A stretch of 5,216 nucleotides of DNA from positions 1 to 5,216 of IMG/VR virus record IMGVR_UViG_3300045988_125816. One strand, 5' to 3'. Shown piece after piece: positions 2,062 through 5,216 of the stretch. Under the pieces are notes generated by a model. It made no database searches, was not told the origin of the DNA, and saw only the letters and a program-made list of their open reading frames with translations. This DNA is from a virus. Numbering within the stretch: the first letter of the stretch is position 1; every line of letters starts with the position of its first letter. A program made the translations under genes and the position numbers.

Positions 2062-2095
2062 CGCTGCTTGAATAACGCCGCGATATAATCAAATT

Positions 2096-2160
2096 GACCG
2101 ACTCGCGGGTGCGCGTGCGCGCGGTATTTTTTCGCGCGCGTGCGCGCCTGTGTGTCGGTC
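2096..2160. repeat. GC-rich imperfect palindrome with alternating (CG)n/(TG) tracts. Candidate ssDNA hairpin: complementary-strand origin, recombination site, or Z-DNA-prone element.
   Basis: Outer arms GACCGAC (2096-2102) and GTCGGTC (2154-2160) are exact reverse complements. The inner arms GGGTGCGCGTGCGCGCGG and CGCGCGCGTGCGCGCC share the 12-nt direct repeat GCGCGTGCGCGC and can pair with a few G.T mismatches around a TATTTTTT loop (2125-2132). Local GC content is far above the surrounding AT-rich genome. Confidence 0.7.
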
Positions 2161-2194: not shown

Positions 2195-2282
2195 GATACT
2201 GCCGCATTTGGCAGTTAGCCCCTATACCCTCTTGTTGTATAGGGGCTAACTGACACCGCTATCTCGTGTGGCAGTATTTTTT
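2195..2282 (+). terminator. Compound stem-loop region: a perfect 15-bp hairpin nested within a long-range stem, ending in a T-run. Candidate terminator and/or ssDNA origin structure.
   Basis: CAGTTAGCCCCTATA (2212-2226) is the exact reverse complement of TATAGGGGCTAACTG (2238-2252), with an 11-nt loop. GATACTGCCGC (2195-2205) pairs with GTGGCAGTAT (2268-2277), with one G.T, followed by TTTTTT at 2277-2282. TACTGCC can alternatively pair with the nearer GGCAGT at 2210-2215. Confidence 0.6.
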
Positions 2283-2349: not shown

Positions 2350-2637
2350 ATGTCTGTTCCTGTTTTTGGTAATTCTTGTTCTGATAAACTTCATGTCTTT
2401 TCTGTTGTGTCTTATTATAGACCTGTTCGTTGGTTTGATTCTAATGTAGGTTGTGGTTTTGAGTTGCTTTGTGATTCCGATGATATTTGTAAGTTTCATC
2501 ATTTTATTGTTGCTCCTAACCGTGATATTGCTAAGAGAAATGCGTTTGAACTTGTGCTTGAAGATGTGCATGATTTGTATGACAACGATGCTTCGGCTGT
2601 CATTTATCTTCAGCGTTGTAAACTTGCCGATGGTTGA
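2350..2637 (+). CDS. Hypothetical 95-aa acidic Cys/His-containing protein, an accessory gene between VP2 and VP4; function unknown
   Basis: ATG with a perfect SD and its own strong promoter. Codon usage (T-rich third position: tct, gtt, cct, gat, ctt) matches the rest of the genome. No recognisable motif. Four to five Cys and several His suggest possible metal binding. No hydrophobic segment. Confidence 0.7.
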   Translation: MSVPVFGNSCSDKLHVFSVVSYYRPVRWFDSNVGCGFELLCDSDDICKFHHFIVAPNRDIAKRNAFELVLEDVHDLYDNDASAVIYLQRCKLADG

Positions 2638-2675: not shown

Positions 2676-3653
2676 ATGATGTCTTGTTACCACCCTTTAA
2701 CCCGCGTCGTGTACCCCGTGGCCGCGAATATCAATCCTGATACCGGAAAGTATAATGGTTATGTTACGTCATGGGTGCCGCTTGAGTTGCGGCGCCCTGA
2801 CTATCAGTATACTGATATTCCCTGCGGTAAGTGTCGTGGCTGTCGGCTTGATTATGCTCGCGAATGGGCTAATAGAATGTTTTTAGAGGCCGCTTTGTCT
2901 CCTGATGATAGTTGTTGGTTCGTGACACTTACTTATGATGATGCCCATATTCCTTTTTCTGAATCCGGTAATCCTACTCTTGTAAAGCGTGATGTTCAGC
3001 TTTTTTTAAAACGCCTTCGTCGCGCCCATGAAGATGATCGTATTCGTTTTTTCGCCGCCGGTGAATATGGTGATACTACTTTCCGTCCGCATTATCATAT
3101 GATTGTTTTCGGTCTCCATCTGGATGATCTAAAGCTTTATCGGTTGTCTAAGCATGGCTATCCTCTTTATAATTCGGCTAGTCTGTCTGGCCGCTGGACT
3201 GATTTCGACGGTGTATCTAAAGGTTTTGTTGTTGTCTCCCCTGCGTCTTGGGAAACTATGAGTTATACCGCTCGCTATACGCTTAAAAAGCTTAAAGGTA
3301 ATGATGGCTTCCTCTATGATGAGCTTGGTATTCTTCCACCGTTCTCTTTGATGTCCCGCCGTCCCGGTATTGGTGGCGATGCTTATTCCCCCGGCTTGTT
3401 TGAGCAGGATTATATTTACCTTGCTGGTCGTAAGATTGCGCCGCCTAAGTATCTTAAATCCTTGTATGAACGTTTTGACCCTGCTGAGTACGAGGGATAT
3501 TCCGCTTACCGTAAAGAGCGTGCTAATGTTCGTACAGAGACTTTGATTAAGTCTCTTAATAAGCCCTATTTGGATTATCTTAAGGATTGTGAATATAATT
3601 TTTCCCATCGCACGGAGACTCTTAATAGGCGTGATTTAAATATTGATTTGTGA
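2676..3653 (+). CDS. VP4: Replication initiation protein VP4 (rolling-circle HUH endonuclease, phiX gene A-like)
   Basis: GAGG at 2665-2668, 7 nt before ATG 2676 (the ORF-track start TTG 2673 is also possible). Motif 1 FVTLTYDD, motif 2 RPHYHMIVFG (the HUH motif), motif 3 YTARYTLKK with two Tyr spaced by 3 residues as in superfamily-I Reps, and an N-terminal CGKCRGC cysteine cluster. Confidence 0.9.
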   Translation: MMSCYHPLTRVVYPVAANINPDTGKYNGYVTSWVPLELRRPDYQYTDIPCGKCRGCRLDYAREWANRMFLEAALSPDDSCWFVTLTYDDAHIPFSESGNPTLVKRDVQLFLKRLRRAHEDDRIRFFAAGEYGDTTFRPHYHMIVFGLHLDDLKLYRLSKHGYPLYNSASLSGRWTDFDGVSKGFVVVSPASWETMSYTARYTLKKLKGNDGFLYDELGILPPFSLMSRRPGIGGDAYSPGLFEQDYIYLAGRKIAPPKYLKSLYERFDPAEYEGYSAYRKERANVRTETLIKSLNKPYLDYLKDCEYNFSHRTETLNRRDLNIDL

Positions 3654-3737: not shown

Positions 3738-3854
3738 ATGATGCGTCGTAAGCTTCCCTCTGGTGTTGATGCTAATGTGTTCCGCAACACCGCCGCCGTT
3801 GGCAAAAAGATAAATCTTGGTACCATTATATTCAGAGGCGGTATTCGCCTGTGA
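3738..3854 (+). CDS. VP8: Small basic DNA-binding protein (gokushovirus VP8 / phiX J-like), 38 aa
   Basis: Not in the ORF track because it is too short. ATGATG at 3738, with AAAGGA 11 nt upstream. Translation MMRRKLPSGVDANVFRNTAAVGKKINLGTIIFRGGIRL* is net basic with a C-terminal RGGIRL, resembling the C-terminal motif of Microviridae J/ORF8 DNA-packaging proteins. Its position between VP4 and VP5/VP3 fits the gokushovirus layout. Confidence 0.6.
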   Translation: MMRRKLPSGVDANVFRNTAAVGKKINLGTIIFRGGIRL

Positions 3855-3968
3855 CTGTCTGCCTTTCCCCTTGAACAACTAGCGCCGCTAGGCGCAATGG
3901 CACTTTTGACTAGTAGTTCTCCCGTCCTGAACGTATGTAATAACGATTTTTTGAAAGGATGTATTTTT

Positions 3969-4199
3969 ATGAAAATGCCCGTTTATTCTATCCGTGATGT
4001 TCTTAACGGTTATTCCGCTCCTATGGTTGATGTCAATGACAATACGGCTATTCGGAATTTCAAGTATTCCCTTGCTGGTGATTCTGTTGTTGGTGCTAAT
4101 GCGTCCGATTATGAACTTTATCGCCTTGGCGAGTTTGATACTGTTTCCGCTAAGTTTACCCCTGAAGATATGCCTATTCTCCTTTTCAGAGGTATATGA
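3969..4199 (+). CDS. VP5: Small 76-aa protein, putative VP5-like nonstructural/packaging protein
   Basis: ATG 3969 (MKMPVYSIRDVLNGYSAPM...DYELYRLGEFDTVSAKFTPEDM) lies 9 nt after AAAGGA. The upstream part of the 3897 track ORF has no RBS. The position between Rep and VP3 corresponds to gokushovirus VP5. The homology call is from memory of a GEFD-type motif and is uncertain. Confidence 0.6.
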   Translation: MKMPVYSIRDVLNGYSAPMVDVNDNTAIRNFKYSLAGDSVVGANASDYELYRLGEFDTVSAKFTPEDMPILLFRGI

Positions 4200-4200
4200 T

Positions 4201-4674
4201 ATGGCTAGATTTTTTTCTTGTCCCGGTTCTCCGTTTCGACCCGTTCGCGAAAGTTTTTATGATTCATCCGGTGCTCTTTGCCTTCGTACTGTTGGCACTG
4301 ATAATATTGATCAGCTTATACAGAGTCATGCCGCTGGAGCTGATATTGTTTCACTTGCCCGGCGTTGTATGCTCGGTGATCCTTCTGCTGTGCGTACTGA
4401 CAGCCCTATGTATATTGATAATGTAGGCGCTCCCAAGACTCCTATTGATATGCTTAATACTATGGCTAATGTTCGTCGTACCTTCGATTCCTTGCCTGCT
4501 GATACTCGCGCGGAGTATGATAATGATTTCAATAAGTTCTTTGTTTCCATGTTTTCTAATAAGTCTACCATTCCCGGCAATGATGGTAAACAGACTCTTG
4601 ACCCTGTTGACCCTGCTTCTAATCCTGTTGACCCTGCTTCTAATCCTTTACCCGCTGGAGGTTCTAATGAATAA
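4201..4674 (+). CDS. VP3: Internal scaffolding protein VP3
   Basis: ATG 4201, 8 nt after AGAGG, in frame with the 3994..4674 track ORF. Contains ...NVRRTFDSLPADTRAEYDNDFNKF..., resembling the conserved VP3 motif (FxSLPxxxRxxYxND) of gokushoviruses. Ends TAA at 4672-4674. Confidence 0.8.
   Translation: MARFFSCPGSPFRPVRESFYDSSGALCLRTVGTDNIDQLIQSHAAGADIVSLARRCMLGDPSAVRTDSPMYIDNVGAPKTPIDMLNTMANVRRTFDSLPADTRAEYDNDFNKFFVSMFSNKSTIPGNDGKQTLDPVDPASNPVDPASNPLPAGGSNE
4605..4646 (+). repeat. Perfect 21-nt tandem duplication inside the VP3 C-terminus
   Basis: TGTTGACCCTGCTTCTAATCC at 4605-4625 is repeated exactly at 4626-4646, encoding DPASNPV twice in a Pro/Asp-rich tail. Confidence 0.85.
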
Positions 4675-4821
4675 TTTAAAAAAGAAACTTGGTTCTTTTT
4701 TTCGTTGCTTTGATGATTTTATACATTGTTTGCGCGTTCTCTTTTTTCTTCTCCCCGACGTTGTTTCTGATGTCTTTGCTGGTGATTGCAATTATCTTGA
4801 ATATGATTTGGAGGTTTATAG

Positions 4822-5216
4822 ATGAATGTTAATGCGGAGTCGCATTTTGCTATTGCTCCTGCTGATGTTGACTTTCAGCGTTCGCAGTTTGACCGCTCCC
4901 ATAAGAATACATTGACATTTAATGTTGGTGAGCTTGTGCCCTTCTATATTTCGGAAGTTCTTCCCGGTGATACTTTTGATGTGTCTACCTCTAAGGTTGT
5001 CCGCCTTCAGACTCTTCTTGCGCCTGTTATGGATAATCTCTATTTGGATACGTACTATTTCTTTGTTCCACATCGTCTTGTATGGGATCATTGGCAGGAA
5101 TTTTGTGGTGAATCGAATCAGGCTTGGACTCCTTCAGTTGAGTATTCTATTCCGCAAATTAAAGCCCCTGTTGATGCTGACGGTTATGCTGGTTGGAAGT
5201 TTGGTTCTCTTGCTGA
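4822..5216 (+). CDS. VP1: Major capsid protein VP1 (Microviridae F-like), N-terminal part. It continues across the circular junction into 1..1379, for about 572 aa in total.
   Basis: ATG at 4822 preceded by GGAGG at 4811-4815 with 6-nt spacing. Translation MNVNAESHFAIAPADVDFQRSQFDRSHKNTLTFNVGELVPFYISEVLPGDTFDV...LYLDTYYFFVPHRLVWDHWQEF is typical of a gokushovirus VP1 N-terminus. The open frame runs to the window end, and the sequence there equals 1..55, so the frame continues at position 3. Confidence 0.9.
   Translation, partial: MNVNAESHFAIAPADVDFQRSQFDRSHKNTLTFNVGELVPFYISEVLPGDTFDVSTSKVVRLQTLLAPVMDNLYLDTYYFFVPHRLVWDHWQEFCGESNQAWTPSVEYSIPQIKAPVDADGYAGWKFGSLA
5162..5216. repeat. Terminal redundancy: exact copy of window positions 1..55, the circular genome junction
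   Basis: Base-by-base identity of 5162..5216 with 1..55. It implies a circular 5161-nt unit genome. Confidence 0.95.

Follow-up and report, generated by a model that had tools for sequence, protein, structure and literature searches.

A strand-specific hairpin under structural selection, next to a probable viral-strand origin, in the main intergenic region of a gokushovirus-type microvirus

Introduction

Gokushovirus-type microviruses are among the most abundant phages of the gut and the environment, and to our knowledge neither of their replication origins has been mapped by experiment. The genome analysed here (the window, a whole stretch of 5,216 nt) carries a GC-rich palindrome of alternating CG in its main non-coding region, which raises the question of what such an element does at this place. 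The original prediction saw in it a candidate minus-strand origin, by analogy with the hairpins of phiX174 and G4, or alternatively a XerCD/dif recombination site, and pointed to its capacity to form Z-DNA. We examined the palindrome, its conservation and its neighbours in the intergenic region, and weighed these readings together with others.

Results

Genome context

The window spans one complete microvirus genome, a circle, and its bases 1-55 are repeated at 5162-5216; this terminal redundancy of 55 nt leaves a circle of 5161 nt, with 43% GC and 37% T. The genes of this circle lie on the + strand without exception, and are arranged as follows.

4822 across the junction to 1379, + strand: VP1
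1384-1402, + strand: canonical terminator hairpin after VP1
1423-2061, + strand: VP2-type (pilot protein) gene, from the ORF list and from gene calls on identical contigs
2062-2349: intergenic region of 288 nt, the main non-coding region
2350-2637, + strand: ORF of 95 aa
2676-3653, + strand: Rep/VP4
3738-3854, + strand: basic protein of 38 aa
3969-4199, + strand: VP5
4201-4674, + strand: VP3

The Pfam marks found on identical and related contigs are Phage_F for VP1, Chlamy_scaf for VP3, Phage_ORF5 for VP5 and REP_ORF2-G2P for Rep. Both the expected gene set and a circle of about 5 kb are present and, judged from the sequence, the genome is that of a gokushovirus-type member of the Microviridae. 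The nearest genomes in GenBank are gut microviruses, with a VP1 identity of just 51-53%. Strong Shine-Dalgarno sites suggest a host that is not E. coli-like, perhaps a Firmicute.

The intergenic region has a modular order, which runs from the VP2 stop through two hairpins (HP0 and HP1), a spacer, a third hairpin (HP2) and a T-run to a promoter.

2062-2082, + strand: HP0, a small hairpin directly after the VP2 stop, with a 6-bp stem (2062-2067/2077-2082), from RNAalifold and the alignment
2083-2095, + strand: HP0-HP1 linker, with the conserved core AATCAAA, from the alignments
2096-2160, + strand: HP1, the palindrome, with left arm 2096-2123, loop 2124-2132 and right arm 2133-2160, from folding, the inverted repeat and the pair table
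2161-2171, + strand: HP1 3' tail, 11 nt, conserved and pyrimidine/T-rich, TTACCTTTGGC, with clade consensus YTAYYTTTKG, from the alignments
2172-2195, + strand: HP1-HP2 spacer, variable and poorly conserved, with insertions in relatives
2196-2280, + strand: HP2, a long hairpin followed by a T-run, with core stem 2215-2228/2238-2251 and the 3' motif TGACACC at 2252-2258
2293-2321, + strand: strong sigma-70-type promoter, TTTACA-N17-TGTTATAAT, with 11 of 12 matches and a TG extension, conserved in the clade

In the relatives the -35 element of this promoter reads TTGACA, and the promoter is followed by the ribosome-binding site AAGGAGG and the ATG at 2350. The stem of HP0 is 92.9% paired with two covarying pairs, and its 9-nt loop, TTGAATAAC, is invariant but for the first base, the clade form being (T/A)TGAATAAC.

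HP1 is the most stable fold of the genome

The GC-rich alternating-CG palindrome was found at 2096-2160 with all the parts that had been described. It is delimited by GACCGAC (2096-2102) and GTCGGTC (2154-2160), contains two copies of the 12-mer GCGCGTGCGCGC (2111-2122 and 2136-2147) around the T-rich loop GTATTTTTT (2124-2132), and includes GGTGCGC at 2108-2114. Its GC content is 71%, against 43% for the genome, and it holds 15 CpG where 3.2 would be expected per 65 nt. Genome-wide there are only two alternating purine-pyrimidine runs of at least 11 nt, and these are the arms of HP1, with 15 nt each (2109-2123 and 2133-2147). In a repeat search HP1 was the longest inverted repeat in the window (28-nt arms, 9-nt gap), and it is single-copy in the phage genome.

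The 28 positions of the stem comprise 22 Watson-Crick pairs, five G.T pairs and one T.T mismatch (T2103/T2153), so that 27 of the 28 pair on the + strand. The hairpin that had been described as partly mismatched is thus indeed a long one, with mismatches that are mostly + strand wobbles. The 12-nt direct repeat is likewise present, but it does not stand as a feature of its own: it follows from the self-complementarity of the 12-mer, which has T.G/G.T at its centre, and relatives do not share it (the arms of the relative L062, described below, differ), whereas they do keep the pairing.

The stable ssDNA hairpin that was anticipated is also what folding predicts. As + strand DNA, HP1 folds with −30.0 kcal/mol (z −7.35; none of 200 shuffles as good), and as + strand RNA with −54.2 kcal/mol (z −8.95). 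On the − strand, where the G.T wobbles become C.A mismatches, the DNA fold reaches only −21.8 kcal/mol. A sliding ssDNA scan of the whole genome with 70-nt windows placed HP1 as the most stable element (z −7.6) and HP2 as the next (z −4.2), with no other outlier. G.T occupies, on the + strand, five of the six non-Watson-Crick positions of the stem, which has a probability of about 0.002 given the composition of the arms.

The C-to-T mutational bias of ssDNA is a possible contributor to this excess of G.T.

Two other ways of reading the sequence were considered and rejected. The overlapping ORFs (2094-2249 on the + strand and 1914-2207 on the − strand) are both interrupted by loop or spacer indels in relatives, and the TTGAAT...TATAAT pair at 2068-2089, taken as a promoter for a small RNA formed by HP1, has a spacer of 10 nt and a −10 that is not conserved. 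An Rfam search with HP1 gave no match, apart from a spurious miRNA with an E value of 0.5.

HP1 is conserved within its clade and under selection for structure

Seven other assemblies contain the intergenic region in identical form. Protein searches led to L062 (VP1 91% identical), and cluster members gave five more distinct genomes. As the original prediction would have it, HP1 is conserved in close relatives: it is carried by all seven distinct clade genomes (7/7), and a covariance model made from the window and L062 recovers it in all clade genomes with E ≤ 3e-23. Between the window and L062, HP1 is 88% identical, in comparison with about 65% at third codon positions and 51-60% in the other intergenic stretches, and the seven substitutions in the stem each preserve pairing (P 0.001-0.009, by simulation). 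Over four full genomes, conservation amounts to 0.92 for HP1 and 0.95 for HP2, versus 0.80-0.91 for the genes and 0.59-0.78 for other intergenic regions, while the VP1-VP2 intergenic region around the VP1 terminator reaches 0.91. Besides HP2 and this VP1-VP2 region, HP0-HP1 is the only conserved non-coding module.

To assess covariation, the seven distinct sequences were aligned independently with MAFFT and compared with 500 shuffles. Standard pairs are formed by 98.9% of the HP1 pair cells, and double compensatory changes occur in five pairs (seven cells); neither value was reached in any of the 500 shuffles. Most of the covariation falls in the base of the stem, GACCGAC/GTCGGTC, which does not alternate, and sliding the pairing partners abolishes the signal, save for the expected ±2 slip of the alternating repeat, which keeps about 70% of the pairs. 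Four G.T (G.U) positions are invariant in the alignment. HP1 is a real, strand-specific hairpin, under selection for structure. Selection acts on the + strand pairing, G.T included, and for this reason readings of HP1 at the level of duplex DNA are weak.

Outside the clade HP1 was not recovered, and in relatives with a VP1 identity of about 55% its place is empty or occupied by something else. When the intergenic region was searched by blastn, in which the low-complexity filter may mask CG runs, only HP2 and the promoter region were matched among phages, and nothing better than E=5 was obtained among plasmids. A scan of IMG/VR with the 17-mer GGTGCGCGTGCGCGCGG gave 61 matches, all in phages of 56-77% GC, mostly in coding sequence and none related to the window. 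A degenerate pattern of the two HP1 arms matched 36 times in GTDB, as scattered single hits in GC-rich genomes, and once in IMG/VR, with no common flanks or loop; such exact-pattern scans have limited sensitivity for HP1. The search for the locus by VP1 gave nothing in IMG/VR and, in JGI metagenomes, only relatives of about 40% identity.

HP2 resembles the phiX174 viral-strand origin

The hairpin downstream of HP1 is nearly invariant within the clade and far more widespread than HP1, with blastn matches in many gut microviruses. Its loop is CCTCTTGTT. A first pattern that required exact arms matched only unrelated large phages and was abandoned, and a pattern of the loop and 3' flank was found in at least 120 IMG/VR contigs, most of which are 4-5 kb long. 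In 88 distinct genomes the loop has the form (T)ACTTGAT(G/A)T and the 3' flank is TGACACC, and the sequence of the stem varies freely, with 32 different arms among 41 strictly scored hairpins. The annotated origin of phiX174 (AACTTG/ATATTAATAACACTATAGACCACC, with the nick at 4305/4306) and HP2 both carry ACTTGAT where the nick lies, with GAC(C)ACC some 20 nt further downstream. Because of this likeness we read HP2 as the viral-strand (+) origin, which it probably is, with a putative Rep nick after G2235 (CTTG/TT).

The outer stem of HP2 and its T-run at 2277-2283 also look like the terminator of a transcription unit, and this terminator-like hairpin with its T-run is conserved, 110 nt downstream of HP1. 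Among the 88 genomes we found no universal hairpin upstream of HP2, which in about half of them comes directly after the preceding ORF.

Similar hairpins occur in other lineages

In addition, we identified alternating-CG hairpins directly 5' of HP2 in L157, L174 and L254, which belong to an unrelated lineage (Rep about 35% identical). In these three genomes the hairpin lies downstream of a canonical terminator and has no T-tail, and this position beyond the terminator makes a role in the transcript unlikely. Their CG tract is rearranged, yet it is still alternating, and there is no + strand bias. When the 60-nt windows of the 88 origin-bearing microviruses are ranked by CpG density, the top three come from two unrelated lineages, and each is located no more than about 110 nt upstream of HP2. 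Similar G.T-rich hairpins occur elsewhere too: in L182 one is located 5 nt beyond the VP1 stop, at a site taken by canonical terminators in relatives, and in L128 one is located in the VP1-VP2 intergenic region.

Discussion

A candidate signal for complementary-strand initiation

We propose that HP1, with HP0 and the 3' tail (about 2062-2171), may be a signal for the initiation of the complementary strand that acts at the level of ssDNA, and we assign this reading a probability of roughly 0.4. According to this proposal, HP0, HP1 and the tail would together act in cis, as one module, through the structure that they fold into on the + (viral) strand. The GC-rich stem of HP1 would remain duplex while the infecting ssDNA is otherwise coated by host SSB, and would in this way mark the start of the complementary strand for host priming by primase, RNA polymerase or a PriA-type primosome, perhaps with the start itself in the single-stranded, conserved tail that follows the stem. 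Priming would then turn the ssDNA into the replicative form, on which HP2 would act as the Rep-nicked viral-strand origin.

This proposal is consistent with the fold scan, in which HP1 is the dominant duplex on the packaged or entering + strand, and with the presence of a separate canonical terminator, formed by the outer stem of HP2 and its T-run, which scores better than the HP1 tail. The tail could be either a weak U-tract or a possible priming site, and the trinucleotide that follows the stem (TTA, or CTA in L257) presumably fits the initiation preference reported for Firmicute primases, a point that is speculation on our part. The proposal further draws on the selection for pairing in HP1, on the standing of HP0-HP1 among the few conserved non-coding modules, and on the layout of the intergenic region, with its parallels in G4 and in L157, L174 and L254. 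Conserved long hairpins before Rep in other uncultured microviruses have also been proposed as minus-strand signals, although not certified as such (PMC9865509). The minus-strand origin put forward in the original prediction is thereby retained as a candidate, a selected and strand-specific hairpin beside a probable viral-strand origin, although homology to the F-G elements of phiX174 and G4 was not found.

More doubtful is the wider proposal that HP0-HP1 is the complementary-strand origin of a gokushovirus clade and that wobble-rich alternating-CG hairpins are interchangeable, host-adapted minus-origin cassettes, which would have been acquired independently and often beside a phiX174-like HP2.

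Some observations speak against priming. HP1 is restricted to its clade and resembles no characterised priming signal in sequence or structure. G.T pairs are better tolerated in RNA than in DNA. Some microviruses have an intergenic region of 88 nt that contains only HP2, and a hairpin at this position is accordingly not universally required. The location of HP1 in the VP2 3' UTR, its T-rich tail and the presence of the L182 and L128 hairpins near VP1 also point away from it.

Alternative explanations

Since all genes are on the + strand, the structural evidence applies equally to mRNA, and roles in ssDNA and in RNA are inseparable by sequence; that the relevant molecule is ssDNA and not mRNA, and that the function is priming, is what we infer. 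HP1 may instead be a G.U-containing hairpin in the 3' UTR of VP2 on a late polycistronic mRNA, where it would be an intrinsic terminator, weak or in tandem, stabilise the message by blocking 3'-exonucleases, or offer an RNase III-type processing site and so tune VP2 expression. We hold this explanation to be only a little less likely than priming. The 35 nt that separate HP1 from the VP2 stop contain no terminator, the RNA fold of HP1 is highly stable (about −54 kcal/mol, z about −9), its wobbles are tolerated, four of them being invariant, and its tail is conserved and T-rich, with 5 T in 8 (ACTTTTTG in L257). Intergenic hairpins of phiX174 are leaky terminators and mRNA-stabilising signals, and the G.T-rich hairpin of L182 takes the very place of a canonical VP1 terminator. 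However, the stem of HP1 is two to three times longer than those of usual terminators, and the T-run score of its tail (2.1-2.9, within the top 13% of the 15-mers of the genome) is below the 3.6-4.6 of the VP1 terminator and the HP2 T-run; a terminator scan with a rule of at least 5 T in 8 did not call HP1, though the tail satisfies that rule. The terminator-like HP2 downstream would make HP1 redundant for 3' end formation, a role in RNA leaves the invariant HP0 loop and the linker unexplained, and the alternating-CG hairpins of L157, L174 and L254 lie beyond a canonical terminator, without a T-tail.

Three further explanations were considered. A flip of the CG/TG arms to Z-DNA, or a cruciform in the negatively supercoiled replicative form, could modulate nicking at HP2 or the promoter, and the idea draws on the two 15-nt alternating runs, unique in the genome and within the length range of about 12 bp or more, on the position of the three most CpG-dense windows upstream of HP2, and on the tract of L157, L174 and L254, which was rearranged with its alternation kept and shows no + strand bias. 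We nevertheless consider it quite improbable: the runs of a Z-DNA former are there, as had been noted, but the covariation of HP1 is strongest in the base of the stem, which does not alternate and has no bearing on Z-DNA; any transition leaves the alternation intact, so that its survival does not point to selection; and the C.A mismatches of the − strand (−21.8 vs −30 kcal/mol) disfavour extrusion of a cruciform. That HP1 has no dedicated function, being a slippage-prone palindromic GC microsatellite or a captured REP/MITE-like repeat that is merely tolerated, is very unlikely. Alternating CG tracts can grow by slippage, a register slip by 2 leaves about 70% of the HP1 pairs in place, and the element is lineage-specific, but it is conserved beyond synonymous sites and other intergenic regions and shows compensatory changes, and it is single-copy, with no multi-copy family in the pattern scans of IMG/VR or GTDB. 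We attach hardly any probability to a XerCD attachment site that mimics dif, either in the duplex form of the enterogokushoviruses or in that of CTXphi, a folded ssDNA hairpin. Enterogokushoviruses do carry their dif motifs in non-coding sequence between VP2 and VP4/VP5 (Kirchberger and Ochman 2020, PMC7062461), the HP1 stem has 28 positions, the same as dif, and GGTGCGC equals 7 nt of E. coli dif with the rest unmatched, exactly as first noted. Against this, the best match to four dif sequences is 17-18 of 28 positions genome-wide, the same as in shuffles, while the intergenic region does not exceed 17 of 28 and HP1 has 12 of 28, bearing in mind that the dif of the host itself may differ, and the XerD-arm core TTATGTWAA is absent from the whole genome. 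The selected + strand wobble pairing is not required of a duplex recombination site. Neither is there a sign of integration: bacterial genomes yielded no close relative, the VP1 relatives with more than 57% identity are all Logan/ENA contigs of about 5 kb or less, the full contigs are all circular, the GTDB scan with the HP1 pattern gave scattered chance matches only, and the chimeric contigs L086 and L087 join at 2261/2262, outside HP1. Most gokushoviruses lack dif (PMC7062461).

Implications

The locus offers a compact and testable pair of elements, formed by the widely conserved phiX-like nick-site hairpin HP2 and, just upstream, the clade-specific and selected HP0-HP1. If HP0-HP1 is the minus origin, this would be the first defined origin pair for the gokushovirus subfamily, and HP1, as minus-strand origin, would reveal the priming route of the host, which would help to predict hosts and to design synthetic genomes that can be rebooted. 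Should HP1 be an element of RNA 3' ends, it would be an ordinary regulatory hairpin of unusual composition.

Comparison with known systems

Like G4 oric and the F-G elements of phiX174, HP1 is a non-coding + strand hairpin of a member of the Microviridae, GC-rich relative to its genome and predicted to stay folded on ssDNA. In G4 the annotated primer start (CTG at 3996-3998) is 4-6 nt 3' of hairpin I, which is GC-rich, and the stem of HP1 likewise runs, on its 3' side, into a conserved single-stranded tail. HP1 differs from both in that it consists of one alternating-CG stem of 28 bp, in place of three short hairpins, and lies after VP2 and before Rep, whereas the G4 and phiX174 elements lie between the coat and spike genes. 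In stability HP1 is comparable to these elements or exceeds them, with −29 kcal/mol over 136 nt for the G4 region, −17 for phiX174 and −30 for HP1 alone. A search of the G4 genome and the phiX174 F-G region with the HP1 covariance model revealed no homology (best E 2.6).

In the Ff phages (M13/fd), the last gene is followed by one or more minus-strand priming hairpins, the nick-site hairpin and the promoter of the replication genes, and rolling-circle plasmids have their single-strand origin immediately upstream of the site that is nicked. The Ff and sso elements are strand-specific imperfect palindromes, and behave as lineage- and host-specific cassettes whose sequence is not conserved. The order of elements in the HP1 intergenic region mirrors this layout of Ff phages and rolling-circle plasmids. 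A promoter scan of 2096-2160, where the stem is almost pure G/C, found no −35/−10-like hexamers of the Ff type. The CS-6 motif of ssoA, TAGCG(T/A), is absent from the entire + strand and occurs on the − strand only at 938 and 3272, HP1 does not contain the RSB motif of ssoA, and it is much shorter than ssoA, ssoU or ssoT. Terminator or stabilising hairpins of phiX174 are similar to HP1 in that they come soon after a structural gene, in the sense of transcription, with a T-containing tail; HP1 differs in its far longer stem, its weak U-tract and the better terminator downstream.

Among other uncultured microviruses, the reekeekeeviruses have a conserved hairpin of about 64 nt, with compensatory substitutions, between the last gene and Rep, for which a role in negative-strand synthesis was proposed that "cannot be certified" (Olo Ndela et al. 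2022, PMC9865509). They belong to a subfamily other than that of the HP1 phage, and the likeness to HP1 is drawn from their published description. The attP of enterogokushoviruses and HP1 occupy the same general region downstream of VP2, with the difference that HP1 has no dif-like sequence and is selected as a hairpin. HP1 therefore resembles the structured intergenic signals of phiX174, G4 and the Ff phages, is a homologue of none of them, and represents a kind of element that is already known. What is distinctive in HP1 is its alternating-CG, wobble-rich composition, and tracts of this kind recur beside the origin-like hairpin in two lineages.

Accessory features of the window

Window 2350-2637: ORF of 95 aa, flanked by the promoter and Rep
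Window 3855-3968: VP8-VP5 intergenic region, with a small GC hairpin (GCGCC GCTA GGCGC) at 3882-3895
Window 4689-4832: very hydrophobic 47-aa ORF, overlapping the VP3-VP1 junction region

The slot between the promoter and Rep is variable: in L062, the relative with 91% VP1 identity, it is 47% identical in nucleotides and holds a different ORF, of 89 aa, while other members of the clade (the seven distinct genomes that carry HP1) have ORFs of 96-98 aa. No ORF was called in this slot in L261, L262 and L264, where the VP2-Rep distance is ~400-420 nt. Homologues of the 95-aa ORF were found only within the identical cluster, and none outside it. Conservation of the VP8-VP5 intergenic region is moderate, with 86% identity to L062. 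The 47-aa hydrophobic ORF is a possible candidate for a membrane or lysis peptide; on identical contigs, gene callers choose a different, 52-aa frame in the VP3-VP1 junction region, and not this ORF.

Hairpins and CG-rich palindromes

Window 2062-2082: HP0, a small hairpin directly 3' of the VP2 stop codon

The 9-nt loop of HP0, (T/A)TGAATAAC, is almost invariant in the clade, its stem has two covarying pairs, and AATCAAA is retained in the linker 3' of the hairpin.

Hairpins like HP1, the 65-nt GC-rich alternating-CG hairpin, were also observed at other positions, in L128 (4423-4488) and L182 (2226-2275). Both have alternating CG/TG arms with many G.T pairs and a T-rich loop, and are much more stable on the + strand. 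The hairpin of L128, a relative with 56% VP1 identity, lies in the VP1-VP2 intergenic region, and that of L182 lies 5 nt 3' of the VP1 stop. In a distant gokushovirus lineage (Rep ~35% identical), rearranging alternating CG/TG/CA palindromes lie directly 5' of the genomes' own HP2 (L174 ~1483-1607, L157 ~381-481, L254 ~3-95), with a canonical terminator upstream of them; in the survey of 88 genomes, the three windows of highest CpG density come from the tracts of this lineage together with the window.

The HP1-HP2 spacer seems to act as a hotspot where GC-rich palindromes are acquired. L259 has an inserted GC-rich tandem or palindromic sequence there, with GCCGCGGCGCTTGC repeated (~3010-3075), and L264 a different hairpin at the same spot.

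The origin-like hairpin HP2

Window 2196-2280 (core 2215-2258): HP2, a hairpin whose loop reads CCTCTTGTT, flanked on its 3' side by TGACACC

HP2 is kept in more than 88 distinct microvirus genomes, with a stem that covaries freely, and is probably where Rep nicks the DNA in gokushovirus-type phages.

In two short contigs from separate assemblies, L086 and L087, an identical, unrelated stretch of 76 nt (1-76 in both) is joined to the phage at 2262 (junction window 2261/2262), ~27 nt beyond the putative nick in the 3' direction and not at HP1. L086 (776-1337) has a second junction, at window 2960. Chimeric assembly or a library artefact is the probable source of these joins.

The outer stem of HP2 and its T-run look like the terminator of the operon. 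A second copy of the 3' arm of this stem, GGCAGTAT, occurs ~15 nt downstream in six of the seven clade genomes, overlapping the -35 box (GGCAGTATTGACA); unlike these, the window has lost the downstream copy (2270-2299). Among known systems, HP2 is similar to the annotated viral-strand origin of phiX174, AACTTG/ATAT...GACCACC.
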